A DNA stretch of 62,644 nt, filler included, from Asterionella formosa (lineage: Eukaryota), in NCBI GenBank assembly GCA_002256025.1. It is 5 parts of 5 records of this genome, joined end to end, with 100 filler letters (N's around TTAATTAATTAA, not from the genome) between each part and the next. Parts side by side here need not be neighbours in the genome. Positions count along the whole stretch, not along the records: positions 1 to 28,485 come from NKIB01001217.1; 4 more parts are not named here. One strand, written 5' to 3'. Position numbers and translations under genes: made by a program. Positions 1,498 through 49,887 of this stretch are shown piece after piece. Below the pieces are notes generated by a model. It saw nothing but the letters and a program-made list of their open reading frames with translations, ran no database searches and was not told where the DNA came from. How positions within the stretch are numbered: position 1 is the stretch's first letter; each line of letters begins with the position of its first letter.

Positions 1498-2145
1498 GTT
1501 TGAGGAAAATTGCAATTAATAATCATAAACTGAAAATATATATTTTCTTGTTGGTGAGGATGAATCAAAACTGAAATTTTATGATGTATGAATAATACTC
1601 GCTGTGGCCGTAGAAGGGAAGACCGACCTTTTTCTAGACAGTATGTACCAGCAGGCACACGGTATACCGTTTTATAGGCTGTTGCGAACAACGCACCTCG
1701 CTCTGGGTTTGTTCGTCCTGTTTTTCTTGCTGTGGAGCATAAATAGGAATCCAGAATCCATGAGTGTGGCTGTGTGATGCCTTCCATCAGGATTCCCTTG
1801 ATCCCTAAGGATTCCAGCCATTTTCTATCGACAGCAGGGTGCGGCTGATAGGATAGGTTTTTTATGTAGAACAGAAATGCCCTCTCACTACTTATGCCAC
1901 GAGGACGAAACCAAACTCCTCCATTGCTGCTGCTCGCTTACTTGATATGCATAAGATAGCATCGAACCAGCCGCTTTTGATTTAGACAGTCATCATCCTC
2001 CTTCGAACAGTACAGTACAGAACAGCGCATGCACTATAGTAATCATACAAGTTGATAGATAGTCAAGCAGTTCCATTTATAAATCATCATTGTCATAAGA
2101 ACAAGAAGCCCATAATTGTCAGAGCAAAACAGAACAGCAACAAGA

Positions 2146-3576
2146 ATGTTGAAATCATCGCTTTCCTCCTCGACGACTGCCACTGCCCAGCTCATCATTC
2201 GTCGGCGCCTATTGAAGCCAGCCAAACCGTTCTCGTCCGTCCCACCCAGCCACGCCCAAGACTCCTCTGACTCGGGCGCAACGAACAGCAGACGCCTGCC
2301 CAATCCACAAGACTTTGTCAAGGTCCGCCTAGAACCTGGCGAATGGGATCCTGACCGCAAGGATCCGATTCATCGACCTCCATGGAGGAACAATGCAAAG
2401 ATCATGCACCCCGACGACTTCTTCTTGCGCTCCAGGTCTGTCCTGGGCAATGGGGAGGTGGCGTCCGTCCATGATACCATGTCCTCCCTGGGCTGGTTGA
2501 GTGCCAAGGACCAAGATACCATGTACCAGTCTTACTTGGACATGTGTCAACGCATGACGGCGTCTACCAATGGGATCACATCGCACGAATACATTTTTAG
2601 GGTACTGGGACAAAAGTTCAACGTATCGTCGTCGAGAGTTGCGGCTGTGTGTGTGCTCAAACACAATGAAGAACAAATGAAGGCACGAGGAGAAATTATT
2701 TATTACGAACACCAGGACTACGCCGATGAAAAGATTGCAGGACATATACAATCCGTATACAGTATCTACAACGAAGTTAACCCTCACCAATTCGTGGAAG
2801 ATTCTCTTGGAAATCCTTCTTCGGAAGTTACAGATGAATCGTACACGGCCACTAATGACTTGATTGACGTTGATGCCAATTTGGACGAAGCCAACGTCCG
2901 GGCAAAGGAGGAAGCTAGACTTGTCATTGACTCATGGGTGTACAAGGAAGATATTGACGAAGACACCATCCATGTTTCTGTATCACCCGCTGTGAAGAAA
3001 CTCATGGCACAGCATGCCAGGTGGAATGCTCATGACCATGCTCAACGTCCAGGCGATCTGAAACCACTTCCAGGAGGGGGTGCTGAACCCAAGCGACCAA
3101 GGTACAAGTACGCAGCGCATTTTGTGGAAGCAAAAACAAAAACAAAGAAAAATCAAATTGTTACCAAGAAGAAGAAAAAGGAAATTGCGCTCAAACAGAC
3201 AGATAACACCATTGTGGAATTAGATGGCCAATTGCGAGTGGCAACTGTCAAGGAGGCCAAGGGCTGTTCCTGGAAACCAAAGCGAGATGGGAAATCCTTC
3301 ATGTACCAAGGGTTGCATGATGCTTGGTTAGAACGACAGTTGAGTGGCAGCATGACTGTGTGGGGAAGACAAGAGGCTCCTGCAGTGGTGGTGCCTGTTG
3401 TTGAAGCAGCTGCAGAGGGAGCTGAAGTGAATGACGACAATGATGAGAATGAAGCTGATGATGGTACTGAGTCTTTTGTCGAGGAGGATTCTGCCGAAAA
3501 GGAAGGATCCCCTACTACAGAAACGGACACTGAGGGTGTCAAGGATGGCAATGATGGTGACGACAAGAAGGAATAA
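2146..3576 (+). CDS. Probable mitochondrial protein, mS45/Bot1-like mitoribosomal family
   Basis: Ser/Arg-rich presequence-like N-terminus (MLKSSLSSS...RRRLL..FSS). RVLGQKFNVSSSRVAAVCVLKHNE resembles the Bot1/mS45 core motif. Acidic tail. Confidence 0.55.
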   Translation: MLKSSLSSSTTATAQLIIRRRLLKPAKPFSSVPPSHAQDSSDSGATNSRRLPNPQDFVKVRLEPGEWDPDRKDPIHRPPWRNNAKIMHPDDFFLRSRSVLGNGEVASVHDTMSSLGWLSAKDQDTMYQSYLDMCQRMTASTNGITSHEYIFRVLGQKFNVSSSRVAAVCVLKHNEEQMKARGEIIYYEHQDYADEKIAGHIQSVYSIYNEVNPHQFVEDSLGNPSSEVTDESYTATNDLIDVDANLDEANVRAKEEARLVIDSWVYKEDIDEDTIHVSVSPAVKKLMAQHARWNAHDHAQRPGDLKPLPGGGAEPKRPRYKYAAHFVEAKTKTKKNQIVTKKKKKEIALKQTDNTIVELDGQLRVATVKEAKGCSWKPKRDGKSFMYQGLHDAWLERQLSGSMTVWGRQEAPAVVVPVVEAAAEGAEVNDDNDENEADDGTESFVEEDSAEKEGSPTTETDTEGVKDGNDGDDKKE

Positions 3577-4253
3577 CGCTTCGTAGCAGCCAAAGTGCCG
3601 TTTGCTGGTTTGGGTACAATCAATCAACGAAAGCAATAAGTTCAAATACTCGGTAGACTATGTGGTGGAGGAAATCATGGCAATCGACGAATACTTGTAG
3701 TGGCAACTTGATATAGCTATTTGTAATCGAACCATAGATATAACAAAACGGTTGGACGAAAAAGTAATACTGCGGTTAGTAAGGTATACAAGTATGTACA
3801 CAAATTACTGGTAATGTACCTCATAGATAAACTACCGGTACCTGGTAGACTACTGTACTGATATGTTTGGGAGTGTAAGTACGTATTCATATTTGCATGT
3901 TTTTCGTTGATTGTCTTCTGTGTTGCTAGCGGTCTCCTGGTTTGATAATCTGCCATGTGAATGAATGATTATATATTGTTGTACATGTATTAGTTAGTGC
4001 AAGTACATTGACATATGTATGTGTGTCAGTATACATACAAGAAAGTATCCATTTTAGAGTCTCACCGGGAAACCGGTACTCACCACTGTCGTCCCAATTG
4101 CTGATGATCGAATGGGTGTGGCATAAGAGACGAGACCTTCTGTTACAGCATCGTCGTATGTATCGCAACTACTCCTAGTTTCTTATAAACCACTGACTCC
4201 ACTTCCCGTTCTGCCCTTTGGTGTGAATTAATATTACGAAGGAACGATCGATC

Positions 4254-6081
4254 ATGCCAGCCAATTTCATCATTGAAGAAGCTCCCTCCGCTCGCTCAAC
4301 CTGCAAGAAATGTAAAGAGAAGCTGCCAAAGGGAATCCTTCGTATTGCCAACATTAGCGAAAGTAGTGACTCCGACATGGTGTTCAAGAGGTGCGTAATG
4401 GCACAGTGTGGTCCTGTCTTGAAGGGCTGTGTACCGTCATGCATATTTCAATTGTATACAACACAGTTATAGCCTCATCTCTCTCACTCCTTCGAGATTT
4501 TTTTCACGTTGTATATGGCATCTTTTTCTGGATCCGATCCTCCATCCATTAATTTAACTATAGTTACTACCATACTTCATGTTTCAGTATTCCTAAATCT
4601 CAGGAGATCAAAGACGTGGCAGAATGGTGCGATGCTATACTTGTTGATGAAACGGAACATCAGATTATGAGTAAGGAAAAGGAGCGCGTCAAGATTATTG
4701 CTGACATCATGTCCAAAATTGGGAAGAGTGAGAAACCATCATCAGTTGTTACTTCTAAAAGTAGTAGTAGTACTACTACTTCTTCTAAAGCTACTACTAC
4801 TACTACGAATACAAAGCTTGAAAAATTCAAGGCTGTGGCTGAGCAAGAGAGAGGTTCGAAAAAAAAGAAGAAGAAGCATGCAGATGAGAAAGACGCCAAT
4901 GACGAACCTACCTCCAAAAAGGTAAAATTAACAAAAGAAGAAGAAGCGGAATATGATATTTACAGTATGTACAGTGACATGAGTGTCGATGCACTTCACG
5001 ATGTTTTGCGGTACGTTCACTTTGAATAAAGTTTTTTTTAAATGATGGACATTATGGTTCCACTCAACTGATGTTGTTCCATATTTTTATTCAACTTCTC
5101 AGTTGGAATCTACAATTGGTGGCCGGGAACAAATCAGTCTTATTAGCTCGCGTCACTGATGGACATTTACGAGGTCGCTTGACTCGTTGTCCCCTATGTA
5201 CGGGTGGGAAGATCGCCATCCGTGATGAGGTTGGTATGGATGCATCATGCAATGGATACTTTGATGAAGACAAGGGCATTCGGATCAGCTGTTCATTCAA
5301 GGCACCAGTGGAGAAGTGCCCAAGAATTCATCCATGGTTTGCTGAGAAACCAACAGATGAAGAAATGGAAGATATTAAACAGAAGGATCTGGATACAAAG
5401 GCAGGCAAGTCAGCATCATCCAAGTCGTCCACAGAAGCCATCAAGGTACTGTTGGGCAAGATTAAGAAATTGGAATGGAAGACAACCACAAAGGCAGATA
5501 TCAAGGCTTCCACAGCAGCAATGGTTGCTATCCTGAAAGATGGTGAAGTTACAAAGGTAGATCTCCCAGAAGGGCGAGAGACCATGGCTGTGGGAAAGAT
5601 TGTTGCTGCAAATCAGGTATGTAGATAGGTATTGTTCAAATATGCAGCTCATTTTTTATCCCAATTTAGCTCACTAAAGTTTCATTGATTGCAGAGCAAA
5701 TCTTCAGAAGAAGTATTCACCATGATTGTTGAACAGTATGGGTTTGCTGATGATTCAAAGGCTAATGATGCACAGAGAATAGAATTGTTGGAGACCACTT
5801 GCATCATACCTGCCAATGCTCCCATTTTGATGGTCCTCTTGGAACTCAAGAATGTGTATGATAAAGAAGGCAATTCTCAAGCTGGTAGAACCTACAACCA
5901 TGTTGCAGACGCCATCAAGAATCTTGACTTTGAAGTTACCACTGCGAATGTTATGGCCATGTCCAAGGGCAAAACAAAGGTTGCTGGGATTGGGAAGTCA
6001 AGTGCAGAAAAGATCAAGGAGTTTTTAGAGACAGGGAAGATTACAAAACTGGAAGAGAAGCGTGCCGCACAAGCTGTTTAA
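4254..6081 (+). CDS. PARP-type Zn finger + PADR1 (Zn3) + PolX/pol-beta 8-kDa HhH domain protein; exons 4254-4390, 4564-5010, 5103-5616, 5695-6081
   Basis: Three GT..AG introns (4391-4563, 5011-5102, 5617-5694) join in frame. Motifs: APSARSTCKKC...LRI...YYHTSCF (zf-PARP); LLARVTDG..G.LTRCPLC.GG...C.GYFDE...SC (PADR1); GIGKSSAEKIKEFLETGKITKLEE (HhH_8). Confidence 0.85.
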
Positions 6082-7221
6082 CTAGTGTAAAAGTGAAAAT
6101 CTACAGGTTTTGAGTCTCATGTTTAAACAAACAGGAAAGATGCTTATCAATGTTGTGAGGAAATCTAATATTTTAATTTCAAATAGCTTTCTCTAGTTGA
6201 CTGAAAAAATGATTTGATGCCGCTATTGACAGAAAGAGAATTGCATCATCTCAAAGATGGTGTCATCACAAGATTCACTAGATTTTTTAGAATAGGACAC
6301 AAGCCAACAAACGACCATGACAAAATTGAATGGATAGGCTCTTTGTACCGGATTTCAGAACCTAGTCTGTCATCAACACAATTGCAAGAACGTTGAGAAA
6401 AATAAGTATTGCCAATGGCAAATATATGTAGTACAGCAAGATGATATCTAGTTGAAAAAAGTAAAAGTAACATGGCACCAATGGTTAACACCATTTAACT
6501 TGGTTAACTGAAGCAACTTGGGCAAGTCAGCATGGGTCAGCCAGATTTCAAGGAAACGGCTTGGACTGAGTTTGCTCTTGGAGAAATTCACTAGTGATGA
6601 TTTCTACCGGATTTCTGGAGGAGATCGCATTGTTGATGCTGAAGGTAAAATCCAAGCCTTTGATGGGTCCCAAGAATGGCTTGGTCATGCATAGGAGGCT
6701 AACATGCAAATATCGAATGAGAAGAAGTGTCATTTCATTCAGTTGTGATGATTATGGTTGAGTTGGCTAATGTAAGTGTCACTAATAATTCATGAAAGGG
6801 ACAGGGGTAGTGATGCTGTCTCACTATCTGTGGGTGTTTTGGTGCTGGCTGCTAATGCATACTACTATCGTGACATGATAGTTGCTATAGTGGAACTTTA
6901 TGCTGGTTTCCCAAGAATTTACATAGAAGGCTCTGATGTTCTTCATGTTTTTCCAGGTTACTCAGCCACCATCATCCCTTTGCATAGTGGCTTGAATCTA
7001 GTGACGTTGTGAGGGATGGCACTTCTCACTGAAGGTTTAAATAATCAGGACTTGCATGATGCTAGTATGCACAACGGGGGATACGATTAACAGTAGTAAG
7101 AGAAAGAAAGAATGCATGACCATCATTAAAAACTCACTTCTAACGCACTTTCTAAGACCACGGAGTTAAATTTCATAGCATGGCCTGTCAACTAGGAGAC
7201 CATGGTGTGCTTCCCTAGTTT

Positions 7222-7495
7222 TGCTAGTATCGGTGAGTCCCCAACCATCTTTTGAGAAAGGTGATCGTCTTAGCCTTAGCTGCTGAGTTAGGGGAAACTT
7301 CGACCGCCTGGGAAAGAGGGACAATGCTTGTAGAGAGGGGTACACTTTTCCTTGCACACCAAGCAAGCAAAAATGCGAGGGATGGTGCGGAGTGTGGGAG
7401 TAGAATCCAACAATTGCTTCTCAAAATATTTGCGGGAAGCAAACCACGCTATTTCAAATCAAAGGCAATGTGCCCAACCAACTGAACCATTTCCC
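7222..7495 (-). mobile_element. Putative tRNA-derived SINE, copy 1
   Basis: The minus strand begins GGGAAATGGTTCAGTTGGTTGGGCAC (A-box/D-arm-like) followed by GCCTTTGA, and aligns over ~270 bp with 48563-48830. Confidence 0.55.
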
Positions 7496-8704
7496 ATTGT
7501 TCACGCCACCATAGTCATTGGTTTTTTTGATAGGAGATGTTGTGGTACTGCTAGTATCATGATGGTCTAGGGCGATTGAAGTAGCAGCAATGGCGCGGGA
7601 ACAGCCATCATGGCTGTTCCCGCAACCCTATGATAGGCCATAAACCAGAGAAATATAATTATGAAAGGGCAAGTCATGATCCTGAAAGATCAATGTTGCA
7701 CTGTTGGAAAAGGTATTCTACAAGGTATGGATAGTTTATTATCCAAAATTGGGTTTCATGTCCCATTCAAGGTGAACCTTGCTTATATTGGTTTTTAACT
7801 TATTTTCGCATCCCCCTTGTATTAATAAACTAGCTAATCAGATCATCAATTCCGATTTAAATTTTGTTTTGTTTTGGACATATCCATACAAGGGGTGCCT
7901 TGATTAGACCCAATACAAGATAGCACTTGAATTGGTCCCAATAACTCATTTGCGAAACCCATTAATACAGTATCAGGATAATCCTTTTGAGGTCAATAGT
8001 GAACTAATATCTATCTATAGTACTATTTTCTTTTACGACGAATGTCCATGTTTTTGGCTATTTTAACAAGAAACAAGCACATAACAGATTCTGGCGCAGT
8101 GCAAAATCGAATTTCTGAAAATGTTTAAATCATCTGTGGGTTCTTCTCAAGAAGCTCCCCCAGCGTTTTCTTCGTCGCAATTTCCAAATCCTTCATCAGT
8201 CAAGCAAGAAGATCGGAGCGCGGAGAAAGATGGTGTTTACATTGAAGCAGCAATAAAGAAAACTACAACAACAAAAAAGCATTCTCAAATTCGGATAACT
8301 TACATCAGTTTGCATGATTCAACTGGAGCTGGCTGGCTGTTCCCTTTCTAATCACTCTACAATTCACGGATCCTTCAATTACATAGAAAGTAAACTGAGG
8401 CAGGGATGGGGGTCCTTCTGAATTTTTCCTCAATGGAACAGAGTCACAATGACCGGTGAGAAAAATAGGCAATTCTTTTAGCAAGTTCAAGAAACTGAAA
8501 GGACCTAAACTCTATGGCTTGAAACAATTTCTCCTCTTCAAACACAGCACTTTGTCAATGATTTTGCGAATTCCCTATTCAGGTTTGACCTTGTATTGGA
8601 ACCTAATGTATTACAGACAGAAACAATGTGAATTGTGAATTATTGTCCCCTTGTATTGGCACTTATGGCTTTGAATTGGGACATACATCTAAGCCTTGTA
8701 TTAC

Positions 8705-8960
8705 TACATGAAGTGATCATCACGTAAATAAGCCTAGTTGATTTTGAATGCATCACATGAATTAGATGAACATATCAAAATGCTTACTTGAATATATCTA
8801 TATATTATCCGAATACATCACACTAATTATTTGATCAGAGTATCATGCATGCATTCCTGATCATCACTATATTACGTGATCACCTTCACGTAATTATTTG
8901 AAATACTTCAATTAATTCTGTAATTTAGTTCACATTGCCTTATAATTTTGTTCACGTAAT
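8705..8960. repeat. Dispersed AT-rich repeat, also at 56712-57037
   Basis: The shared sequence GAAGTGA.CATCAC.TAAATAAGCCTAGTTGATTTTGAATGCATCACATGAATTAG...TATCATGCATGCATTCCTGATCATCACTAT occurs at both loci. Confidence 0.85.
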
Positions 8961-10623
8961 TCTATAATATAGTTCACGTAATGTATTAAATTTGTTTACA
9001 TAATTTAAAAGTACTATCAAATAATGTTGATTCTTAATTCAACTACCGGTATTTCACATTACATTGGAAACAAATCTCGATATGCAATCAAACAAAGCTG
9101 TTCTATCAGAATGGAATCTTCAGTCTTGAGAAGGCGCAGGCATTATGAGACATCTGTAAGGACATTGCAAGACAAAGAGAAGCCATTCATTCAGAAGGGG
9201 AAAAATATTCACTCTTGAACAGGCATCATTGTACAAAGTTGAAACATGAATGCATCACACACTGGCTTCCTTCTTGTCCTTGAAATGACTTCTTCGTTGA
9301 CCTGCAAAGATTTACATAACAACAGTGTGTCAGTATTTCATATGATAGAACTAGCAACAGCAGAAAGCAACACACACATGTAGTAGTATTCAACTGTTCC
9401 TTGGGGCAGTCGAATTGAAGCAACAAACCGGCAACAACCAGGCAGCTCACTGATGCGTTCATAAGAATGCTCCTGTTGTGAAATGGACGGCTAAAATGTA
9501 AAATAAAATAAATGTAGACAACAATAACAGAACCATGTGATTTATCGCTCGCTTTGCTGAAACAATGACAAAAACTGAAGATTGAGCTTACCTTAAAGGC
9601 CTCCATTGCGGGTCTCCATTTTGTATCATTTCACCCTCTATCACTCATGCTTTCCAAAGAACACTACTTTTTTGAAAAGGCCTGTTCAAATGTCAAATGA
9701 ATTTTGAAAACAACAGCATATCAGTATGAGTTATCCTTCACTTGGTGATATGATAGCAAAAATAGTAAGCAAATAAATCTTACCTTAAAAGCATCGATTG
9801 CTTACGATCTCAGTGTTGTGTCATTCCACCTTCTGTTGTGGTTGCAACAAACAATATGTGAGTTCTTGGCTGATGAAGGATTTGTTAATGGTGAGGCGCT
9901 GAAAAGCTAGAAGCGGGATACTGCTTTTAAGGGTCGTCCCCATGTTGAAAACATTTTGTGCACAGTGGTGGTTAAATGTTGTCTTTATGAATTCAGAGGG
10001 GCTCAAAAATCCTGGCGCAGCCATGACTTCATCTTTGTACCAACAGAACCTAGCTACAATCTACACGAAAAAACCTGGCGCAGTCTTGTTACTTCGTCGG
10101 GACAAATTCTGATGCTACAAGTGTGACCTAAAACAAATATGACAAGAAGGAGAGGACACAGCCAATGGTTACTCTTAGTATACCGGTATTCACAGTGCGA
10201 ACGCCATAGTCTATTGTAACAAGGGAAATACGGGAATGCTGGTAGGGCAAAGCAACCTACAGTTCCACAGTACGCACGTAGAAATGAGTACAGTTTCACA
10301 GTACGAACGGTATAATTCCTATTGTAACAAGAAAGGGGAAGACGGAAATACTGGTAGGGCAAACCTACAGTCTCACACTTGAAACAACGACCTGGTTCCT
10401 ACCAGCCAGAAGTACCTGGTGGTACCATACAATATAGCTATTTGTTACCATGTCTGAGTGCAGGGTCCAAAGACCCAAGGTACCAGGTACCTGGTACCTG
10501 GTAGCCCTCGTACCTGGTACTGGTAGTATGTATCATAGCCCTGTGTAGGCCTTCGATACCGATACCTGGTCACAGGTACCTGGTGAAGTATCTAACTAGA
10601 AGTAGTAGTATTTGTTGAATATA

Positions 10624-10752
10624 TGAGCTAATTAATCTTATGTATCCCAAGTTGACATCAAAGTATACAATAGGTGTTAGTCGAGCGAGTTCTGATATAT
10701 TTGATATAACCTTAACCCTATATACATCTGTATCGATGTGCAGGATCGCTCA
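10624..10752 (-). repeat. Putative 3' LTR of the Gypsy element (~129 bp)
   Basis: Bounded by TGAGC...GCTCA inverted ends. On the minus strand it follows the purine-rich GTGGGAGAG (PPT-like) just after the integrase stop. Confidence 0.55.
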
Positions 10753-10769
10753 CTCTCCCACACTTCAGG

Positions 10770-12250
10770 GAAAACCTTTTACCTATGAAAAGGTTTGATA
10801 CAACGAATATTAATTCGTTCTGTAATATGCATAGTGCATTGAAAAGTAACTGTACCATTGGCATGGACTTGAATTATAGTATAAGGACCTTGTCCACGAT
10901 CATCCAAAGTAGTAGGATTATCCAAAAGTATTAAAATCTTATCGCCACTTTGTAATCATAAGATCGACGACGGAAATTAACACGACGTAAGCGTTCGTCG
11001 ATGATAACTTGTCGACGTTGATGTATCAATTGTAAATCTGTAATCAAAGGAATATTTAATATCATATCATGTTGAAAAACCCATCACCTGGTGAAAGACG
11101 TAATATACTATGAATAGTAGTTCGAGCTGCATATGATGCAGTTGCAAAACATGTATCCACAATGTTTTGGGCTTGAAATTCATTCATTGGAGGGTGAGCC
11201 TTCAACATAACTCGTAGACTATTACTGATAGATTGATGTAAACGTTCACAGATGGCATTTGCTTGTGGATTCTTGACTGTAGTAGTCACATCTTTAATTC
11301 CATTCAACACCAACATGTGTAAGAGAGGAGCACCAGTAAATTCACCTCCATTGTCATGTATACAACGTTCTGGACGGGGATATCTGGCTAACCAATCATT
11401 TTCAAATTTCAATGCAATATATTCTGATGTTTTGTTATTGATAGATGAAATTTCTGCCAAATTGATGACCGTATCAATACAAGTTAGAGCACGAAATTCA
11501 ATTGCTTAAGTAGCCACTGTTATCTTCCATGGACCAATTAAATCTAATGCGACTTCTGACCATGGTAATAATAATGCATTCCTGGGTGGAAGTTCACCAA
11601 AACCAGTACCAGGTAATTTTGTACGTTCTTGACATGCTTCACATACTCTTACAATATGTTCCACTCTTGTTTTTAATGTAGGATGATAAAAATGTGTAGC
11701 GATTGTAGCATTTAATCTTGTCATACCCACATAAGCTAACATCTGATGATACCAATTAATAATAGAATCCAATAATGATGTAGGAATAGCAATACGCCAA
11801 GTATCTCCTGGATTCTTCACAAAACATATTAAAAATATATCATGAAAATTGATAGAAGGAAATTTTAACGGATGTGTTTGTTGGTTGAGAATCAATTGTA
11901 TATCCAGCAGTTGTCTATCATGTATTAAATTATAATCCAGAGGATATTGAATATTGTCTATCAAGATTGGATGATTAAGGAGACAGGTATTTTGCTTTTG
12001 CTTTGGAAGGGGGAGATTTTATATCAAGTCTATCAGATTCGATAGACTCAATTAGACGTTCTGAGGCAGTAGAAACAAGATCTACCACGGGCATACAAGC
12101 AACACGATCTTTACTTCTCGGAATGGTATTGAGATAAGATGAACTGGCATCAACTATTTCGTTTTCACTCGCCTGTGTCAATGCATTAACGGAGAATACA
12201 CGACGTCGGTGATCTTTATTTGGAATGACAGGTATAACGAATTCCATCAG
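10770..12250 (-). mobile_element. Ty3/Gypsy LTR retrotransposon remnant (integrase, frameshifted)
   Basis: Zn-binding region (WYH...C..CQ), DLIGPW, HDNGGEFTG, PQANAICERLH, and a C-terminal GQGPYTIIQVHANGTVT (GPY/F) motif. Multiple frameshifts. Confidence 0.9.
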
Positions 12251-22833: not shown

Positions 22834-25800
22834 CTAGAAAATAATTTGAGCAGGTTTTGCTGTAGTAATTGCCACACTGAAGGAGTCATTCACAGCCAAG
22901 TTGCTAAGTGCTGCACAACCATAGCGCTGCATGTCAGCATTTGATGAATGAATCTTCATCGCATCCAGAATTGTAGTGATACCCCCTGCTGCAGTAATTG
23001 CCTCACTGAAGTAGTCATTCACAGCCAAGTTGCTAAGTGCTGCACAACCATAGTGCTGCACATCAGCATTTGATGAATGAATCTTCATCGCATCCAGAAT
23101 CGAAGTGATACCTCCTGCTGCAACAATTGACACCTTGTTGTTGTCATTCAAAGTTAAGTTCCAAAGTGCTGCACAGCCATTACATTGCACATCAGCATTG
23201 GATGGATGAGTGTTCATGGCAGACAGAATCATCATGATACCTTTTTTGTAAACAATCTTCTCCTTGTTGTTTTCATTCTCAGCCAACTTCTGAAGTGCTG
23301 CACAACCATAGTGTTGCACCAAAGCATTCTTTGGATGTTCTTTCATTGCAGACAGAATTGTAGTGATACCTCCTGCATCAGCAATCAACACCTTGTAGTT
23401 GTCATCCACAGACAAGTTCTGAAGCGCTGCACAACCATAGTGTTGAACAGAAGCATTGTTTGAAGGATTCTTCATAGCAGACAGAATGATAGCGATATCT
23501 TCTTCAGCAATCATCACCTGGTTGTTGTAATTCCCAGCCAAGTTTGCTATCTCCATGAGATTTTTTTCTTGGATGTCAGCATTCTGCTCATTCCTTTGCA
23601 TCTCTGAAAGAAGTTCAGCAATTCGAGACAAAATAGAAGTTGCAGTAGGCCCTCTTGTTGCAGCAATAGTCACATTGATGTTGTCATTCACAGCCAAGTT
23701 CTGCGGCTCTGGAGCTGCTATCTTTATTGACCCACCTATGGAAATGGGCTCATAGCAATTGCCACTGCTTGGAGTTGGGGAAGAAGGATGCGCTGCATTT
23801 GTTGTTGATGTTGAGATTGGCTGAACAGTGTTGCTTTCTGTTGGTTGGCGGTTCTTGTTGTCATTATTCAAAATCAAGTTGTGAAGCTTTACAAGACCAT
23901 TTTGTACAGTAGCATTGGTTGAATGAATCTTCAATGCAGACAGAATTGTAGTGATACCCCCTGCTGCAGTAATTGCCTCACTGAAGTAGTCATTCACAGC
24001 CAAGTTGCTAAGTGCTGCACAACCATAGTGCTGCACATCAGCATTTGATGAATGAATCTTCATCGCATCCAGAATCGAAGTGATACCTCCTGCTGCAACA
24101 ATTGACACCTTGTTGTTGTCATTCAAAGTTAAGTTCCAAAGTGCTGCACAGCCATTACATTGCACATCAGCATTGGATGGATGAGTGTTCATGGCAGACA
24201 GAATCATCATGATACCTTTTTTGTAAACAATCTTCTCCTTGTTGTTTTCATTCTCAGCCAACTTCTGAAGTGCTGCACAACCATAGTGTTGCACCAAAGC
24301 ATTCTTTGGATGTTCTTTCATTGCAGACAGAATTGTAGTGATACCTCCTGCATCAGCAATCAACACCTTGTAGTTGTCATCCACAGACAAGTTCTGAAGC
24401 GCTGCACAACCATAGTGTTGAACAGAAGCATTGTTTGAAGGATTCTTCATAGCAGACAGAATGATAGCGATATCTTCTTCAGCAATCATCACCTGGTTGT
24501 TGTAATTCCCAGCCAAGTTTGCTATCTCCATGAGATTTTTTTCTTGGATGTCAGCATTCTGCTCATTCCTTTGCATCTCTGAAAGAAGTTCAGCAATTCG
24601 AGACAAAATAGAAGTAGCAGTAGGCCCTTGATATATGGATGCTTTGGGACTTCCACCACCAACATCAGGATATGTTTGACTCACAAGTCGACCCAATTCT
24701 TTAACCAATTCTCTAGTCTTTGGTCTCTTCGTGCGATTGTTCTGAATGCAATGAATGGCTAATGTACACACCGAGGACAGAATTCCATCTTCCCATTCCT
24801 CTGCACAAGGATCAACATCCTCCACCAATTTTGGAATTGCCAACTTCAATGCCTCTGCTGGAGTTCCTTCAAAATCGATTGGGAAGTAGCGTTTAAAGAA
24901 ATCTCCCAACTTCACACTATCATTTTGGAGGCAGCCTGTCACAAGCTCAATCATGACAATACCAAATGAGTAAACATCACATGATGCTTCATATTCGTTA
25001 CCCCTGGAATGATTTGGACATATGTAGCCCGGTGTCCCATGTACTCCATCACCTGCTGTGTAACAAACTGAAGAAGGAATTGGATTGGTTTTTACTGAGC
25101 TACCCTTACGCACAAACTTGGCTAGGCCACAATCAACCAGCTTGGCAGTATAGTTCTGATCAAGGCAGATATTAGATGACTTGATGTCACGATGAAACAG
25201 AGTGTGGCCGTCCATTTTTGTAGTATGAAGGAAGTGGATGGCAGAAATAATTTCGTTCATGATTTTAAGTCGGATCTTACTTGAGAGACTTGATCTTTTT
25301 TGTTCACTCTTATAGAATGTATCAAGTGACCCATTGGATAATAACTCATACACCAGGTATTGATCAGATACCACGTGTTGATCAGATAAAACAAGGGACA
25401 AATGATAGCCATACAAAGTTACAATATTGGGGTGTCGGAACAACTTTAATACCTGAAACAGTAAGATAGAAGAATGAGAAACATAAAGACTTGAAACAAC
25501 AGGCAATAGATGATACTACGGATGAGCTTACCTCCAATTCTATTTTAAAAGTCTCTCTTTTGAAAGTCTTCCTAATTCCTTTTTTCTGATCTTCCAAAGA
25601 AAATAAATTGAAACGAACACATTTCACAGCAAAATACCGATTGTCATCCTCGCCTTTGTAGACAGCACCAAAAGCTCCTTGACCAAGTTTCAAGGCATCA
25701 TCAAAGTTGTTTGTACAATTATTAATGAATTCAACAGGAAGCTCGATTGGTCTTGAATTCACATTGTCCATAGCTTCCTTCATTTTCGATCGACCAATGG

Positions 25801-27097
25801 AAATGAGATCAGTTGGATTGCTACTGCTTGGTGTTGGAGGTGTTGTTGAGATTGGTTGTAAAATAGAAAGTGCTCTTTTAGCTTGTTCAATCACACCAGC
25901 ATTGGCTGAGTGATATCGCATAGCAAACTCAATTGCGACTTTTCCACCAGCATTGGAAATCTTCAACTGGTTGTTGTCATTCACAGGCAAGTTCTGTAGT
26001 GCTACACAACCATATCTTTGGATATTAGCATTCTCTGGATGTTTCTTCATTGCAGACAGAATCGCATCGATACCTCCTGCTTCAGCAATCATTGCTTGGT
26101 TGGTGTAATCATTCTCAGCCCAGGTTCCAAGCTTCAAGAGACCATCTATTTGAATGTCAGCTTTCCACTCATTCTGTTGCATCTTTGAAACAGTTGTAGC
26201 AATCTGAGACAAAATTAAAGTGGCAGTAGGCCCTTCTGCTTCAGGAAGTGGCACATTGTTGTTGGCATTCGAAGGCAAGTTCTGATGCTCTGTAGGTGCC
26301 TTCTTTATCACTATAGAAATGGATTCAGTGTGATTGCTATCGCTTGGTGTTTGCTTTTTTGGGGAAGTAGCTGTCTTCTTTATCGACTCATCTATGGACA
26401 TGGATTCAGTGCGATTGCTATCACTTGGTGTTTGCTTTGTTAGGGAAGAAGGTTGTTGTTTGCGGTTCTTGTTTGCATCAACAAGTTTTTGAATATCATT
26501 TAGTAAATAAGCACCAATTGAATTACGACAGAGAATAAGTTTATTCAAGACATTATTGACCTTGAGAGCCTCTGCAATGGCCTTGGCGCCGTCATTACCA
26601 ATTGAATTATCTCCGAGATCAAGTGTAGTCAAGAAAGTATTGTCCTCGAGAGCCTTTGCAATGGCTTTGGCGCCATCATCACCAATTAAATTATGATCGA
26701 GATGAAGTCTAGTCAAAACAGTATTGACCTTGAGTGCATCTGCAATGGCCTTGGCTCCGTCATCACCAATTGAACTATCAAAGAGAATAAGTTCATTCAA
26801 GACAGTATTGACCTTGAGAGCCTCTGCAAAGGCCTTGGCTCCGTCATCACCAATTCTATTGTTGAAGAGATGAAGTGTAGTCAAGACAGTATTGACCATG
26901 AGGGCCTCTGCAAAGGCCTTGGCTCCGTCAACACCAATTGAATTACTATGGAGATCAAGACTAGTCAATCCAGTATTGACCTTGAGAGCCGCTGCAATGG
27001 CCTTGGCTCCGTCATCACCAAAACTATTGAGAGAAAGGTAAGTCAAACTTGGATCATTCGCTTTCAACCGTTTGACACCTGCTTCCCAGCTAGGCAT
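22834..27097 (-). CDS. RI-like LRR + ARM + Pelle/IRAK-like kinase + ARM-repeat protein (~1394 aa); exons 27097-25532, 25452-22834
   Basis: 28-aa LRRs (IGDDGAKAIAEALKVNTVLTTL.L). Kinase motifs GQGAFGAVYKG, FAVK, HRDIKSSNI, DCGLAK, GTPGY and DVYSFG. Intron 25453-25531 (GTAAG..TTTCAG) joins FKIELE|VLKLFRHPNIV. ARM repeats (AGGITTILSAMK.H..NA.VQ.YGCAAL.NL). Confidence 0.9.
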
Positions 27098-27526
27098 TGT
27101 CAATATAGTCTTGGATGTAATGGAAGTTGTTTATAGTGATTGAAGAGCGACTTCTTTTTTGGTTCTTGTTCGAGTGAAAAGTGTTTTTTGTTTTCTGTGT
27201 TGACACTCCTTTTCTCGTGCTGCCAAAATAGTGTCTCGACAACTTGTCGTAGAATTCTACGCAACTCATTCCTCAGGCATGACATGTATACCTTCATCGT
27301 CGTCAATTCTGATTGATTACAAACTTAAGGTTGCTGCATTTGAACCCCTAGCTCGAGGTAGGGTTAAAAAATAATATTCAGTCAGACTAATCAAACACGT
27401 ACTTTTCAAGTATAAAATAGATATCTATAACGCTCAACGAAGCTTTCACCAATACACACCCTTTCCATACAGTCTTCGGACAAAGTAGGGGTGTTGGTCC
27501 ACTCTATATATCGTCAGTATGTAGGA

Positions 27527-28485: not shown

Positions 28486-28585
28486 NNNNNNNNNNNNNNN
28501 NNNNNNNNNNNNNNNNNNNNNNNNNNNNNTTAATTAATTAANNNNNNNNNNNNNNNNNNNNNNNNNNNNNNNNNNNNNNNNNNNN
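28486..28585. other. Artificial contig linker (N-TTAATTAATTAA-N)
   Basis: 100-nt spacer with stops in all frames. The same spacer occurs at 57039-57138, 58909-59008 and 60779-60878. Confidence 0.98.
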
Positions 28586-31500
28586 CTTCCGTGATCGATA
28601 CCCACTCTTCTTCAGAACATCGCGAACAATCATCGTGACGGGTGGTACACTCCATTTCCAAGCCAACAACGAAATCATCAACAATGATGACAAAGCAACT
28701 AATAATGAAAAAAGAAGCGTTGACGATGCTACCCTTCGCTTTTGTCTCATGCCATCCATAAGAGCAACTCTTGCAAACAGATGGCCCCAAAACGCAGTCC
28801 AAGCAAGACAAACGAAGCATACCCAGGACTCAATTGCAGATGCTGAAATAGTGCCGGCCCCTCCAAGTACTAGGGAAACAGATGTAACAATAAACTCGGC
28901 AAGGAACAAGATACCTCCAGAGCTGCCAACAATATGGCCCATCATGAAGAAAGCGATGACAGTAGTGTTCATGGAGAAAAGAGTTAAGATTGATCTTTGG
29001 TTCGGAAAACATTCATAATGAATTCCTCGTCCAGCTTCCATAAATTGTAATGCCATGCTCATGCCCAGACCAATGCTGGAACCAAACACAATCATCAAGT
29101 TCAACAGGATATGTGGGGAACATGCAGTAAAGCTTCCGAGGGCCACCAAGCCACCTGTGATAAACTTTTGAAATGAAGATTCTTCAACGATTGCAGATGG
29201 CTTACCATCTCGTATACTCCCTCCAAAGTCCATCGTTCCACGACAGGCAGCACTTTCAAGCAAAGACCTGTGCTCGCGAAGGTCTTTGCTACGGTAGGTC
29301 GAAAAATGTGCTTGAACAACATTGTATGTTCGCTTATTCCATCTAGGCATAAAAATTAGACATTGAAAAAAGAAGGGGCAATCTCGATCCCAACGACGTT
29401 GCCAATGATCCACGACAGAACGTGTGATTCTACCAAAACTTCCGAGACTTGAGTCTTTCGAAATGTGCTCTTGCATGGCTCGTTCGTAAGTGCGTCCTAG
29501 CCTTCTTTCGGCATGACGTCCCAAGCGTAACCAAATGTGGCAAACCACCATCGCTGCAATCGCACATTCAGTTGAGGAGAGATATCTCATTTCTTTATCC
29601 AGATCGTATGGCAATCCCTCCAGATGATACTCGATTGGTCTTATGGTAATTCTATTGGTGGCACGAGCTAGGAGAGTGAAGAGCAAAGGTAGCATAGAAA
29701 TAGAATTTGCAACCCATTGAGTGGCAATCAGAAAACGCCGATCCACCGTGATACATGCCTCACCGCTCTGCTCTCCATCGACATTCCATCCGAGATGAGC
29801 CGAAAGAGTCCATAGGAGATTGAATAGTCGAGGACCCCTCCCGTTCCCAACGATCAATGGGTTGAATCGATCATTATGACGGTGACGGTTTCCGTGGTTG
29901 ACACGAGTGACATTTTCTTGAGATCGTTGATCATCAAGTTCAAGAAAGGAAAAGTTTGCCAAAGTGAGTACTGAAATGTTTCCTTCCTCCCCCAAAGTAC
30001 TGATTGGGAACTGACCGACACCAAGAGGAGGCACATTGTCCAGATAGTCTCGCAGGAACGATTTGTGCTCAACGCTTTCAAAACCTGATTTTTGGATGTG
30101 CAAAAGTTCATGCCCATCGGGATCCAAGTCACTAAAATCCAGGCAACAATAATGGGTTGCACACACGACATGGGGCCGAGATTTGGTATTACTTGAAATC
30201 TTTCCCTGCGGCAAAGACCAATTCTTAATACGCGACGAGGCATCGTCGATCAATTTCTCCTCGATTCTTGGACCAATTCTTTCAAATAAGTGAGTTGTAG
30301 CAGCAGGACATCTAATCAGGGTGCCAGGTCCTCTTACTCGGTCGAATACCCCATGCACAATCAAAGACCTTGGGCAATTCAACATGGAAAGGGCACCACC
30401 AACAGCTAGTAGTGCCTCGTCCATAAAAACATCTGTGCCAATCACTCTGTTCTTTGGTAGAAAAGGGTAAAGCGCTCTTTCTGAAATGGCGTCGAAAATT
30501 GGGATTGCATCACGATGATTCGGGTCGTGCTGAATACCTAGGCAATATCTGCCCGGAGAATGGCATAGGCGACGAAACCAGTCCAAGTCATCTGGCTCGT
30601 CCTTGCGCTCAAATTCGTCGGCTCGGTCTGACGGTAACTCGACCACCTCACCGTAGATAGAATCGGTGCACAATCGATGCCGATAGACCCCACCCTCTCG
30701 CCATGGTTCGGAGTACCAAATTGGACCGATAAACGCAGTCTTTTCAGCGTGCAATGATCTGTTAGGGTCACGCAATCTACCATGAACAATGATACACAAT
30801 CTGTCCAAAGTAATTTCCAACTGCGATAAAGCTTGACATTGTTTCTTTCCAAGCAAAGGAACAGCTCGTCGTTGCACTACCTGACAGTGCAGCTTATACA
30901 GAAGCCTGTAAACGTCATGCCAATCACAACAAGCTCCATGTACGATTCGGTACACCACTCGAATCAACGAAATTAGTCGATCCATTTCCTGTCGACGATG
31001 TCGTCGGTAGCCTTCGCATATCAGCAGTTGAAGGAGGTGAGTGCGACCGAGTTCTTCCGAACGAACACCCCAATCAGTGGAGCACAAGCGACAACTCTTC
31101 TCCGATCGATACGATTCACCCTGGTCTGAAAATTCCGTTTCTAATTTCGTATTGTTAATCGCTGCAAACAATTTTGCACTTCTGTGTTGCAACTGTGGCG
31201 CTACATGAACAAGTGCGGTCGATGAAGCAGTAGGATGACCCCATTTGTCTGTCGGTCGAATGGCGAGGTCAAAGGGGAAAAGGCTTGCTAATTGAAACTC
31301 TTCGAATCGATAGTTCGCATGCACATGAGCCGACAGATACTGCGTTCTTACTAGTACTTCTGTAGCCACATGCTCCCACAGATAGTCGATAACATGTTTG
31401 TATTTTGAAATCGCAGCATGTGGCATGGCTGGCCTTGTTAGCGAGGGGCGTGACTCTCCCCGAGACGTAAAGGCAGGAGGAATGCAGGGCGATACGGGTG

Positions 31501-33031
31501 CATACATGTACCTCACGGAAAACGGAGCATATGGCAAGTGGGCCTCGTGCGCATACACATTGGCCAAAAAAGGGTCAACTTGTTCTCGTTGGACGTTTAT
31601 CGCTTCGTATGCTTCGGCTATCAAACTACCCAAAAGGCGAACACCCAGGACGATGTGGCAAGTCTCACCTGGTTCCAAATAACCCTCCGAAGGATACACA
31701 GTGAAGCAATCGCATCGTTGTACGAAGATACGAAAAGTCAGGGGTCTGCAAAAATCTGGATTCGTAAATCGGACCACGTGCCAAGTGTGCCGGGCACTTT
31801 CGTGGTGAGGCCCAAGGTGCGCCACAGTATTGGTCACTCCAGGAGCGGTAATATTATCATTTAAATATAGTTCCTTTTTCATCGACTCTAGTTCCGCTTG
31901 AGATGCCAAAGAGCTGCTGAGTAAGGATTCGCCCGTTGCAAAAAACAGGGAATCCTTAAGGAAGTTCAGCGAGTCGGACGAATATTGCTTCGAATCGATC
32001 GTTCTATAAAATGTCGATGCTGCTTTGAATGCTCGTTCGGCACGCTTCTTGATTGATACTGCAGCATGGTTGGATTCATTTGGATGTTTCGTTACATTAT
32101 GACACCACTTGGCAACAGAATATTGAGCAGACGCAAAGGTGGCCTGGGCTTGAGTTGTTGTCATGTTGCTGCATGTTTGTGTGCTATTCAGGAGCAATCC
32201 ATGTGCTGCAGCAGAAACTTCAACCTGATATACGGTATCTGAAATATCCGTACTCAATCGCTGTTTTTCTTCCATGTCTCGCACCATGGGGGGCAATCGA
32301 AACGTATTGTCACGAGAATATCGGCAGCTGGGACAGTACCGACTCCATTGCTTGTCACCGCGATCCCCAAATTCCTTTTCTACATATTCTGGAACGCAGC
32401 ATCTGCCGGGACTATCTCCATCCATGGGTAGTACAATATTCCAATGAGTAATCCAAAGATCGTGGTTGTTTTTGTAGGCGCGTTGATAGGCTAAACACCA
32501 ATCATCTTGTTCTCGAACAATGTCTGTATTCCATCGTCCAAGAAATTTCGATTTCCACAGAGCGTTACTCCTTGATTGTTGGAACATGGTGCGGGAACAT
32601 AAGGCGACAGAGTGCAGATCTTGAACTGGCAAATGTGCTAGAAGGAGTGCAGACACATCGGGAGGGAGTTGTTCCAACAACGACTCGTGTTGTTGTTTTG
32701 AAGGCATTCTTGAGTCTCCTTCGATAGAGCTTTCATCTTCAGTGTCATAGTCGTCTTCTAACCAATCTGGTATTATTATTTCCACCTTGCTGTCATCACG
32801 AGCATTACAGGTTGCTTCTGTGATCTCGGATACTGAAAAGCCCCCCCGTGTTCTCGTAGCATAATCAGGCTCAACAAGCGACACCAGGTGGTCATCGTTG
32901 TCCTTCTTCTGCTGAGCCTCAGACACTCCAGTTTCTATTCCAAATGACAAGGCCATCACCGATTCTTCTGGTGTAAGGATACTCGATTGACTCATCATGG
33001 TTATCAGTTCAGCCATGGAATGACATGACAT
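28586..33031 (-). CDS. F-box + MSP-like domain + C-terminal multi-pass membrane protein (3' end cut by gap)
   Basis: LLEQLPPDVSALLLAHLPVQDLHSVALCSR..LWK (F-box); FTNPD..PLTFRI....FTVYPSEGYLEPGET (MSP/PapD-like); several hydrophobic helices at the C-terminus. Uninterrupted ORF of ~1480 aa. Confidence 0.8.
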
Positions 33032-33336
33032 GCGAACAAAAAATAATAAAGTGGATGATCATTCCTTCGCTCATTTGCAAAAGACACGAAACAGGTAGGT
33101 GTATGAATGATCATTATAAACCGGTAATACCAACTAATAGAATACAGTACCTGGTACATACCGGCACGCAGCAGCATCGCTCACATAAGCAATGCTGTAC
33201 ATTATTACTTTAAGTTGAAACAGATAAGTCAAATGAATCCTGTTTGTACAGCATCTCCAAAATCAGCCCAGTCATGACCTTTTGTGTCTACTGGTACCAG
33301 GTAGTCATGAACATGAATCAATCTTTACTCATATTG

Positions 33337-48830: not shown

Positions 48831-49887
48831 CAGGTCTTGTTGGCAGGTAGCACAAAGAAATACTTGCTATAAAACATACTAGTATCTTTATTATTGTATT
48901 CTTACTGGTCACCATGATGAAACAACAATCAAGACCAACAGAAGCGATGCCAATGACATTTGCGATGGTGATATCCTTGGCCTGAGATCTATTTCAACAG
49001 CCAAAGCTGTGAGTTGCAAGCATGTTGTGGCACGATTATCAAGCTGAATGCTTACAGGCTTATAGGCAGTGCTGGCCTTGATGTTGTAGGCTTGCCGAAA
49101 GCATTCATAGAATTATTTTCGTCTGCTGCCTCATGATGCTGATGCAGAAATATTTCATGAATGTCATGATTCTGGTCCAATAATCATGTAAGTGATGTGA
49201 TAAGCTCATCTCAATTTCTATCACAATCCAAGTCGTAGAACCTACACAAATGTTAACCATTGTCGGAATAGGTACACAAGAGTACACACTTCTCTAGGAC
49301 TTACTATAAATGCCATCACGAAACACCAGAGCACCAAAAATATAAATTCTATCATTGATCCTAGAAACTGTTGGAACCTACAACAATACCATTACTATAT
49401 CTTTTAATGTTGCCATTGACGTTTCAGACTAATAAAGGAAAAAGTGGTGAAGCTGGTTTGCTAATATTATTTGATGATCAAAAAAGGTCCAATATCTTAT
49501 TCGCCCCAGTAAGTAAAACCAGTCGTTACTTTCTGCATTGAGGGATACGAGACACCACAGGTTTGACGGTACTGGTACCTGGTACCAGGTACCACAGATA
49601 TGGGCAGAGACGACCGAAGAAAGGCGAACATACGGACGAGACGCGCGGTAATTGTCGTGTCGAACTTGCTTCGACTGATTCCATAATAACAGTGTGGTGA
49701 ATACCGTAGTGGTGTTTCCTGTAAATATATATTTTACCAACGTACAAAATGATTTGACTTCTGTTATAACCTTTCTCTTTTCTTCGAATAAGAAAGCCGG
49801 TTTTCCAATCATCTCAACAACTGCATCAGCCTTGAAACGACAGAAACATCAATACTACCCAAAGCAAATCCACTTCATAAGAGAACA

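Follow-up and report, generated by a model that had tools for sequence, protein, structure and literature searches.

The window analysed here is a stretch of 62,644 nucleotides, filler included, from Asterionella formosa (assembly GCA_002256025.1), consisting of five parts joined end to end. The gene lies in the first part (NKIB01001217.1), and it and all its features are on the plus strand. Its coding sequence begins at position 4254, the first in-frame ATG downstream of a stop, and extends to the stop codon at 6079-6081. The initial annotation had proposed four exons splicing in frame into a protein of about 494 aa, and this model proved exact: the coding part of exon 1 (4254..4390), exon 2 (4564..5010), exon 3 (5103..5616) and the coding part of exon 4 (5695..6081) sum to 1485 nt, giving 494 aa and a stop, and all three introns (4391..4563, 173 nt; 5011..5102, 92 nt; 5617..5694, 78 nt) are bounded by GT..AG. 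Exon 1 encodes aa 1-45 plus two nucleotides, including the first half of a PARP-type zinc finger (zf-PARP), which is split by intron 1. Exon 2 holds the second half of the finger, a Ser/Thr-rich and Lys-rich linker and the beginning of a PADR1-like helical part, exon 3 the remainder of the PADR1/Zn3-like module, an acidic linker and the N-terminal half of a middle helical domain, and exon 4 the end of that domain and a PolX-type 8-kDa HhH domain.

All three splice joints were present in one contig each of the RNA runs X1, X2 and X4, that is, in three of the four runs and in both studies (P1 and P2). The joints in the contigs, at 4388/4562, 5009/5102 and 5613/5692, are compatible with the GT..AG cuts. 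The spliced contigs spanned positions 3966-6158 (X1), 3928-6200 (X2) and 3966-6193 (X4), placing the 5' UTR at 3928..4253 and the 3' UTR at 6082..6200, both with approximate outer limits, as the contigs are unable to fix the true 5' end of the transcript. Beyond the stop codon the contigs of these runs continued for 77-119 nt and ended there, and none of them included a joint to any downstream exon. The introns and the 3' end of the model were thus confirmed by RNA, and splicing on to a downstream PARP or PolX exon, named in the initial annotation as the observation that would overturn it, was not seen. The fourth run, X7, produced six short contigs of low depth and no joints, two of them (4131-4483 and 5056-5730) entering or crossing introns. 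These intron-containing contigs are unspliced RNA or DNA carry-over, and the contigs of this run were taken as no evidence against splicing. A protein sequence in the databases, P0001 (494 aa; source contig 1889 nt), is also identical to the gene model except for V166I, which corresponds to a G4922A variant present in X2 and X4 as well.

The zf-PARP domain (4275..4624, aa 8-66, with intron 1 inside) was detected in P0001 by Pfam (PF00645) with 43.5 bits against a gathering cut-off of 39.3, and exon 1 alone reached 33.7 bits (E 6.5e-8). Foldseek matched the finger to PARP1 Zn1 (3od8; E 1.8e-4). All the CCHC zinc ligands are in place, C17 and C20 within the CKKC motif of exon 1 and H49 and C52 in exon 2, so that intron 1 does interrupt the motif and splicing brings its two halves together, as had been noticed from the sequence. 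In the family alignment the cysteines are almost invariable (C17 in 55/55, C20 in 54/55 and C52 in 82/87 sequences), and the histidine position holds His, as in A. formosa, in 67 of 86 sequences and Lys in 13.

The Lys-rich linker following the finger includes a run KKKKKK at aa 145-150 and KKVKL at aa 164-168; in alignment, its Lys-rich stretch falls on the linker that separates Zn2 from Zn3 in PARP1. The PADR1/Zn3-like module (4922..5328, aa ~166-270, with intron 2 inside) is composed of three helices and a subsequent four-Cys zinc ribbon; in the AF2 model the helices at aa 170-218 come before the strands. Its landmarks are RWN at aa 195-197 and the ligands C224, C227, C244 and C258, conserved across the family in 139/139, 126/140, 142/144 and 141/143 sequences, respectively. 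The assignment of this module is supported by profile similarity, and the module lies below the Pfam thresholds. A profile built from ten family sequences matched the solved PARP1 Zn3 structure (2riq) with E 9.7e-7, profile positions 142-234 aligning with chain positions 5-99, and Foldseek gave E 1.1e-2 and a target-normalised TM of 0.55 against the same structure. The Pfam scan, which recovered zf-PARP and the 8-kDa domain, found no PADR1 match (PF21728 and PF08063) at E ≤ 1 in P0001 or in exon 3 alone. No relative scanned reached the PADR1 cut-offs either, the top score being 22.8 bits against 25.1 for Zn_ribbon_PADR1 (P0140), and P0131 scored 21.3 bits with PADR1_N against a cut-off of 25.7. 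The Foldseek match to PARP1 Zn1-Zn3 fusion chains (E 2.2e-7) was partly driven by Zn1. These fusion-chain matches had an rmsd of ~18 A, the AF2 placement of the finger and the Zn3-like module differing from that in DNA-bound PARP1; in a model such a misplacement would be expected without DNA, and it is uninformative.

Between the PADR1-like module and the 8-kDa domain lies a family-specific helical domain of ~100 aa (5422..5799, aa ~302-401, with intron 3 inside), overlooked in the initial annotation. The AF2 model shows five helices, and the domain includes a conserved motif, VDLPE (aa 347-351). Of the 162 aligned sequences with at least 70 residues in this region, 128 conserve it. Its top structural matches were a clamp-loader chain (Z 6.2) and an acyl carrier protein (Z 6.1); such values are within noise for helical models, and no fold was therefore assigned. 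A second 8-kDa-like domain was also considered for this region and was ruled out, as hhalign gave a probability of 0.9% against the HHH_8 part.

The C-terminal domain (5812..6039, aa 406-481) is a PolX 8-kDa, lyase-type HhH domain, as had been read from the sequence: Pfam HHH_8 (PF14716) passed its cut-off of 30 with 44.1 bits, phmmer aligned the region with pol beta residues 17-89 (E about 2e-4), and Foldseek superposed about 83 columns of the protein's own model on pol beta (rmsd 1.8-1.9 A). For a relative, P0116, the model matched the pol beta lyase domain with Z 13.6 and an rmsd of 1.4 A over 81 aa (VIA), and a relative's model matched the pol lambda lyase domain with Z 12.8. Also the family profile matched the 8-kDa domains of pol lambda (1nzp; E 6.3e-7) and pol beta (1bno; E 7.6e-6). 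The basic hairpin SKGKTK/GIGK is strongly conserved (K461 in 92/93 and G466 in 92/92 sequences). The lysine that had been noticed in the AEKI motif is Lys472 (codon 6010..6012), and it aligns with pol beta Lys72, the Schiff-base nucleophile of the dRP lyase. Two further basic residues, Lys35 and Lys68, belong to the 5'-phosphate pocket of pol beta. Their positions are occupied by Thr432 and Ser468 in the A. formosa protein, and the neighbouring lysines K459, K461 and K467 are conserved in the family instead; position 432 is T, S, A or V in 106 of 107 family sequences, and just 11 of 92 have Lys at position 468.

The protein ends 13 aa after HHH_8, and the earlier statement that both catalytic domains are missing was upheld at each level at which it was examined. 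Pfam found no PARP catalytic (ART) domain, WGR domain or polymerase palm in the protein, nor did any of the 60 family members of at least 400 aa that were scanned contain a PARP, WGR, BRCT or PolX palm domain. Among the ORFs scanned downstream (14 of the 16 of at least 70 aa at 6082-12000) neither PARP nor PolX families turned up, a retroelement integrase domain being all that was found, and the same families were lacking from the 19 scanned of the 26 ORFs of at least 160 aa in the window. One of these 26, ORF 5026-5628, lies inside the gene itself; ORF 2116-3576 had no family match, and ORF 11506-12018 had the integrase domain only.

The layout is common to at least about 150 cluster representatives, and 284 representatives were found at E ≤ 1e-30. 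Both zf-PARP and HHH_8 were detected in 31 of the 61 scanned proteins of at least 400 aa. Of the best 150 representatives, 149 are at most 615 aa long, the exception being the ZDP-like P0126. Judged only from the few members that are labelled in the protein Atlas, the taxa are mostly diatoms and red algae. The initial annotation had named an already characterised family as an outcome that would refute it. The family is widespread and already exists under an automatic name, but it is uncharacterised; a search of the main text of papers outside subscription journals found no account of HHH_8 together with zf-PARP or PADR1 and no description of the whole architecture. Neither was the expression 'PARP-type domain-containing' found in the literature searched. 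In published accounts, PADR1 is described as restricted to PARPs, and PARP genes are listed as missing from diatoms, brown algae and red algae (PMC2964712, PMC4245714).

Among the closest known systems, the N-terminal DNA-binding region of PARP1 resembles the N-terminal part of the protein, with the same order of finger, Lys-rich linker and Zn3-like module and with both the CCHC and the four-Cys ligands. Full-length human PARP1 matched the family profile with E 1.1e-23, in separate stretches on Zn1, on Zn2 and on the linker with Zn3. There are differences too: the protein has one finger instead of the two of PARP1, divergence keeps its PADR1 part below the Pfam cut-off, and the BRCT, WGR, helical regulatory and ADP-ribosyltransferase domains are absent. 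Since it has no ADP-ribosyltransferase domain, the protein cannot signal by poly(ADP-ribose). The 8-kDa domain differs from those of pol beta and pol lambda in being C-terminal and followed by a stop, with no fingers, palm or thumb. DNA ligase III alpha shares the single N-terminal PARP-type finger (family profile against the Lig3 finger 1uw0, E 1.7e-9) and the logic of a nick sensor combined with a downstream repair module, but in it a ligase core serves as effector where the present protein has an 8-kDa HhH domain, and it has no PADR1. Plant ZDP-type proteins likewise join one or more PARP fingers to an end-processing module of base-excision or single-strand-break repair; in them, however, the effector is a proven type of phosphatase (PNK 3'-phosphatase), and neither PADR1 nor HHH_8 is present. 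Proteins of the ZDP kind were represented by P0126 and by entries in the protein Atlas. The N-terminal HhH domain of Mus81 also shows an 8-kDa-like fold outside a polymerase (Z 8.1, rmsd 2.6 A), but it is much more distant, has an ERCC4 nuclease attached and lacks PARP-type modules. The A. formosa protein is a further case of a fusion of zf-PARP with a repair module.

On these grounds the locus is a genuine, expressed nuclear gene, and its product is probably a protein that binds DNA strand breaks (nicks or gaps) and neither ADP-ribosylates nor polymerises. Domain identities, expression, splicing and conservation in the family are established here; binding to DNA and a nuclear location are predictions, the former from homology. 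The N-terminal half has the layout of the PARP1 sensing front end, with one finger, an NLS-like Lys-rich linker and a Zn3/PADR1-like module, and the family-specific helical domain and the PolX 8-kDa HhH domain stand where PARP1 has BRCT-WGR-ART. The finger, aided by the Zn3-like module, would bind on the 3' side of the break, as in PARP1 and DNA ligase III, and the opposite, 5'-phosphate side of the nick or gap would be held by the 8-kDa domain in the manner of pol beta and pol lambda, so that one polypeptide would clamp the single-strand break from both sides. Partner recruitment would most likely fall to the middle helical domain.

In one alternative, enzymatic activity would come first: the protein would be a 5'-dRP/AP lyase acting on its own in short-patch base-excision repair, brought to incised abasic sites by the finger and the Zn3-like module and forming the Schiff base through Lys472. 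It would thereby provide the lyase activity that the gap-filling polymerase of some algae does not have. The initial annotation had likewise proposed a stand-alone nick sensor and dRP lyase for base-excision repair. The close superposition on the lyase domains of pol beta and pol lambda agrees with this, and the isolated 8-kDa domain of pol beta has lyase activity. Also the Lys72-equivalent is kept in 73 of the 91 relatives with a residue at that position. It is missing, however, in the other 18, and among the 87 relatives on the tree it has been replaced (by L, Y, R, H, T, M or V) in 17, at about 11 scattered positions. The substitutions at the Lys35 and Lys68 positions likewise speak against the enzyme reading, and the related HhH domain of Mus81 shows that the fold also serves as a pure binder of DNA or protein. 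The incomplete retention of the lysine and its scattered losses indicate break or gap binding as the likely conserved role, and across the family the role is more probably binding than catalysis. The same retention figure might also reflect a family whose main function is catalysis, lost in some lineages. For the A. formosa protein itself, 5'-dRP or AP lyase chemistry is plausible, though less likely than not, as it retains the counterpart of pol beta Lys72; that such chemistry is what the protein mainly does appears somewhat unlikely.

A role without any chemistry could also take a form other than the strand-break binding favoured here, that of a break-capping or regulatory factor in which a catalytically dead PARP1-like module protects nicks and ends or competes with sensors; a role in chromatin or transcription unrelated to damage belongs here as well. 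The lack of a catalytic domain and the likeness to the DNA-binding region of PARP1 would fit such a factor, and other proteins with zf-PARP and PADR1 but no listed catalytic family exist in the protein Atlas. The fusion to a gap- and 5'-phosphate-binding domain is nevertheless strictly conserved, and the conserved helical domain points to the building of a repair complex and not to mere capping; this alternative is quite improbable. A functionless decayed remnant or a mis-assembled gene model might account for the missed PADR1 cut-off and the unspliced contigs of X7, but the same full-length splicing was observed in two studies, the 494-aa frame is open, and hundreds of homologues are conserved from end to end with invariant ligands. 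That reading has scarcely any probability left and is, as far as sequence data allow, refuted.

Beyond the strand-break binding protein preferred here, a more speculative and rather doubtful extension is that the PARP1 sensing front end survived in algae reported to have lost PARP enzymes (diatoms, red algae) and, fused there to an 8-kDa lyase domain free of any polymerase, was turned from signalling to acting directly on the lesion. This would give a self-contained 'sense and clean' enzyme that would locate nicks or incised abasic sites and remove the 5'-dRP block by itself, while its helical domain would recruit a non-PolX polymerase or a ligase. If true, single-strand-break and base-excision repair would have a route that needs neither PARP nor PolX.

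The family places a PARP1-type finger and a Zn3-like module in proteins without any PARP domain, and it extends the series of zf-PARP fusions, with a ligase, a 3'-phosphatase and a glycosylase, by a lyase-type domain. It also offers a natural experiment in which the DNA-binding module of PARP1 and the 8-kDa domain of pol beta occur without their enzymes. Most of the labelled members belong to lineages for which PARP is reported to be largely missing, and the family is a candidate for the detection of single-strand breaks in such algae.

The gene at 4254-6081 on the plus strand consists of four exons (4254-4390, 4564-5010, 5103-5616 and 5695-6081, the last ending with the stop codon), and all three introns have GT..AG borders. 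The joined exons give 1485 nt in frame, encoding 494 aa and a stop. When RNA contigs from four runs were mapped to 3900-6700, all three splice joints were found in one contig each of the runs X1, X2 and X4, representing two studies (contig extents 3966-6158, 3928-6200 and 3966-6193, respectively). The in-frame four-exon reading of about 494 aa in the initial annotation is thus borne out by the transcripts, which confirm the three introns and end 77-119 nt past the stop codon, the contigs fixing neither the true ends nor the strand. A public protein, P0001 (494 aa; source contig 1889 nt), is identical to the window protein except for V166I, which corresponds to the variant G4922A present also in X2 and X4. 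The fourth run, the metatranscriptome X7, included six short contigs without joints (depth at most 5.5). Its contigs at 4131-4483 and 5056-5730 enter or cross introns 1-3 unspliced, with several substitutions and small indels, and may represent pre-mRNA, DNA carry-over or a related strain. The public model of a relative with 68% identity, P0002 (363 aa), looks like a mis-prediction rather than a different protein, because it runs on across the sites of introns 2 and 3, includes extra non-homologous residues and ends prematurely.

The Pfam scan of P0001 identified zf-PARP at aa 8-66 (43.5 bits, cut-off 39.3) and HHH_8 at aa 406-481 (44.1 bits, cut-off 30), both above their cut-offs. The finger is indeed completed across intron 1, with ligands C17 and C20 in exon 1 and H49 and C52 in exon 2. 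The PADR1 module proposed earlier stands in substance, although the Pfam threshold is unmet, with no PADR1 match on P0001 at E ≤ 1. A family profile built from ten homologues, A1, was searched against solved structures and matched the isolated Zn3 domain 2riq (E 9.7e-7), the DNA ligase III finger (E 1.7e-9) and full-length PARP1 (E 1.1e-23), the last in one stretch each on Zn1, Zn2 and the Lys-rich linker with Zn3. Also the AF2 model of the window protein (mean pLDDT 74.6) matches the PARP1 Zn1-Zn3 chains (E 2.2e-7), Zn1 alone (1.8e-4) and Zn3 alone (1.1e-2). The protein's Lys-rich linker lines up with the NLS region of PARP1. In the relatives P0031, P0111, P0114 and P0151, the helices preceding the Zn3-like ribbon give weak SAP-domain matches (E 1e-4 to 8e-4, all short of the cut-off), hinting at a SAP-like subdomain.

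The C-terminal domain is of the PolX 8-kDa type. A1 matched the 8-kDa domains of pol lambda (E 6.3e-7) and pol beta (E 7.6e-6), and the AF2 model superposes on the latter with an rmsd of 1.8-1.9 Å over about 83 columns at about 32% identity. A second model, of the C-terminal half of the relative P0116 (pLDDT 82.6), matched pol beta best (Z 13.6; rmsd 1.4 Å, 81 aa), followed by bacterial PolX and pol lambda (both Z 12.8) and the Mus81 HhH (Z 8.1). The initial annotation overlooked a conserved domain of five helices (aa ~302-401, with a VDLPE motif) that separates the Zn3-like module from HHH_8. Its best structural matches, with Z about 6, are noise for helical proteins, and a second 8-kDa domain was ruled out (hhalign probability 0.9%).

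Residue conservation was counted from all 163 collected proteins aligned to the A1 model, among the sequences with a residue in the column. The finger ligands C17 (55/55), C20 (54/55) and C52 (82/87) are more constant than H49 (67/86, with Lys in 13), and the Zn3-like ligands C224 (139/139), C244 (142/144) and C258 (141/143) more than C227 (126/140, with Asp in 13). Judged from these replacements of H49 and C227, zinc may be bound differently or not at all in some lineages. The HhH hairpin retains K457 in 83/93, K459 in 81/93, K461 in 92/93, G466 in 92/92 and K467 in 75/92 sequences.

Within the limits of the data, the gene has no catalytic 'head', either ART or polymerase, in agreement with the earlier reading that both catalytic domains are missing. 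The protein stops 13 aa beyond HHH_8, the transcripts end shortly after the stop codon, and none of the RNA contigs over 3900-6700 joins the gene to downstream sequence, a catalytic exon included. Within the 6 kb downstream, 14 of the 16 ORFs of at least 70 aa were scanned and contained no PARP or PolX family. The only domain they showed was an Integrase_H2C2 zinc-binding domain (E 3.6e-9) in a 169-aa ORF about 5.4 kb downstream (11506-12015, minus strand), probably a piece of a retrotransposon.

The surrounding DNA is nuclear and of an ordinary eukaryotic kind: the 19 scanned of the 26 window ORFs of at least 160 aa, likewise free of PARP and PolX families, included BUD31 (730-1512, minus), protein kinases, one with ARM repeats adjoining an LRR protein (22834-27127, minus), other LRR proteins, a RING protein, a short-chain dehydrogenase, a DENN protein and an intron-split kinesin motor (54434-55916, minus). 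Directly upstream of the gene, an intron-free open frame of 486 aa (2116-3576, plus) with an acidic, Lys-rich C-terminus had no Pfam family at E ≤ 0.01, and the long open frames at 28538-33055 (minus, 1505 aa) and 49792-51561 (plus, 590 aa) had none at E ≤ 1e-5.

The A1 search over 1.84 billion representatives found 284 proteins at E ≤ 1e-30; the number rises to 908 at ≤ 1e-10 and to 2560 at ≤ 1e-3, with true PARPs and PolX enzymes surely among the weaker matches. A catalytic fusion would be expected to match the whole profile and to be long, and so to show among the best 150 matches (all at least 194 bits). None was found there: 149 of the 150 are at most 615 aa, and the sole exception, P0126, is ZDP-like, with several fingers and a PNK3P domain. 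Among the 61 of 163 collected proteins with at least 400 aa, Pfam found both zf-PARP and HHH_8 in 31, HHH_8 only in 22, zf-PARP only in three and neither in four, the remaining one being P0126. The 22 are N-terminally cut models, since their start falls inside the profile, and the three are C-terminally cut. PARP, WGR, BRCT and PolX palm domains were absent from all 60 family members of this size. The family is visible in databases but uncharacterised. In the protein Atlas the query falls into a purely eukaryotic cluster of 78 members that bears the automatic name 'PARP-type domain-containing protein'; 31 of them carry a phylum label, most often Bacillariophyta. In a second cluster, Rhodophyta is the most frequent label among six labelled members. 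The labels fall short of the full taxon range.

The conserved core combines two putative DNA-end-recognising devices in one chain, joined by the family's own helical domain: a PARP1-type finger accompanied by the Zn3-like module, and an HhH domain of the PolX 8-kDa type, which would bind the 5'-phosphate or gap. Together they would recognise nicks or small gaps in nuclear DNA from both sides, which appears the most economical mechanism in the light of established facts on PARP1, DNA ligase III and pol beta/lambda. DNA-break binding is somewhat favoured as the main function. dRP or AP-lyase activity is possible because the lyase lysine, Lys472, is kept in the window protein, where phmmer places it opposite residue 72 of the pol beta chain; it is retained in 73 of 91 relatives in the A1-model alignment.

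Catalysis is nevertheless the less secure part of this reading. The observations of the initial annotation were confirmed, and its interpretation was upheld in part, for the architecture and the missing catalytic domains. The pol beta residues Lys35 and Lys68 have no equivalents, being opposite Thr432 and Ser468, and Lys472 has been lost repeatedly. In a midpoint-rooted FastTree tree of 91 sequences with at least 150 aligned C-terminal residues (P0126 removed; four gapped at this column), 70 have Lys, and the 17 with L, Y, R, H, T, M or V appear scattered over about 11 separate places. A primary lyase role is therefore rather unlikely, and a capping or regulatory role appears improbable. The gene is expressed and conserved, which all but rules out a dead remnant.

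Lacking a catalytic domain, the window protein is not a PARP, and lacking a nucleotidyltransferase it is not a PolX polymerase. In joining zf-PARP to a repair module it resembles, and would work like, DNA ligase III, plant ZDP and the viral HhH-GPD fusions of the protein Atlas. No published description of the zf-PARP, Zn3-like and HHH_8 architecture was found, supplements and subscription journals lying outside the search. Citarelli et al. (2010, PMC2964712) restrict PADR1 to clade 1 PARPs and include Phaeodactylum, Thalassiosira pseudonana and Cyanidioschyzon among the organisms listed without identifiable PARP genes; Perina et al. (2014, PMC4245714) restate this but name exceptions, T. oceanica being one. 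The gene offers PARP-poor algae a candidate sensor of DNA breaks that can be put to the test, and pairs two well-studied DNA-damage recognition modules in a naturally 'catalysis-free' form.
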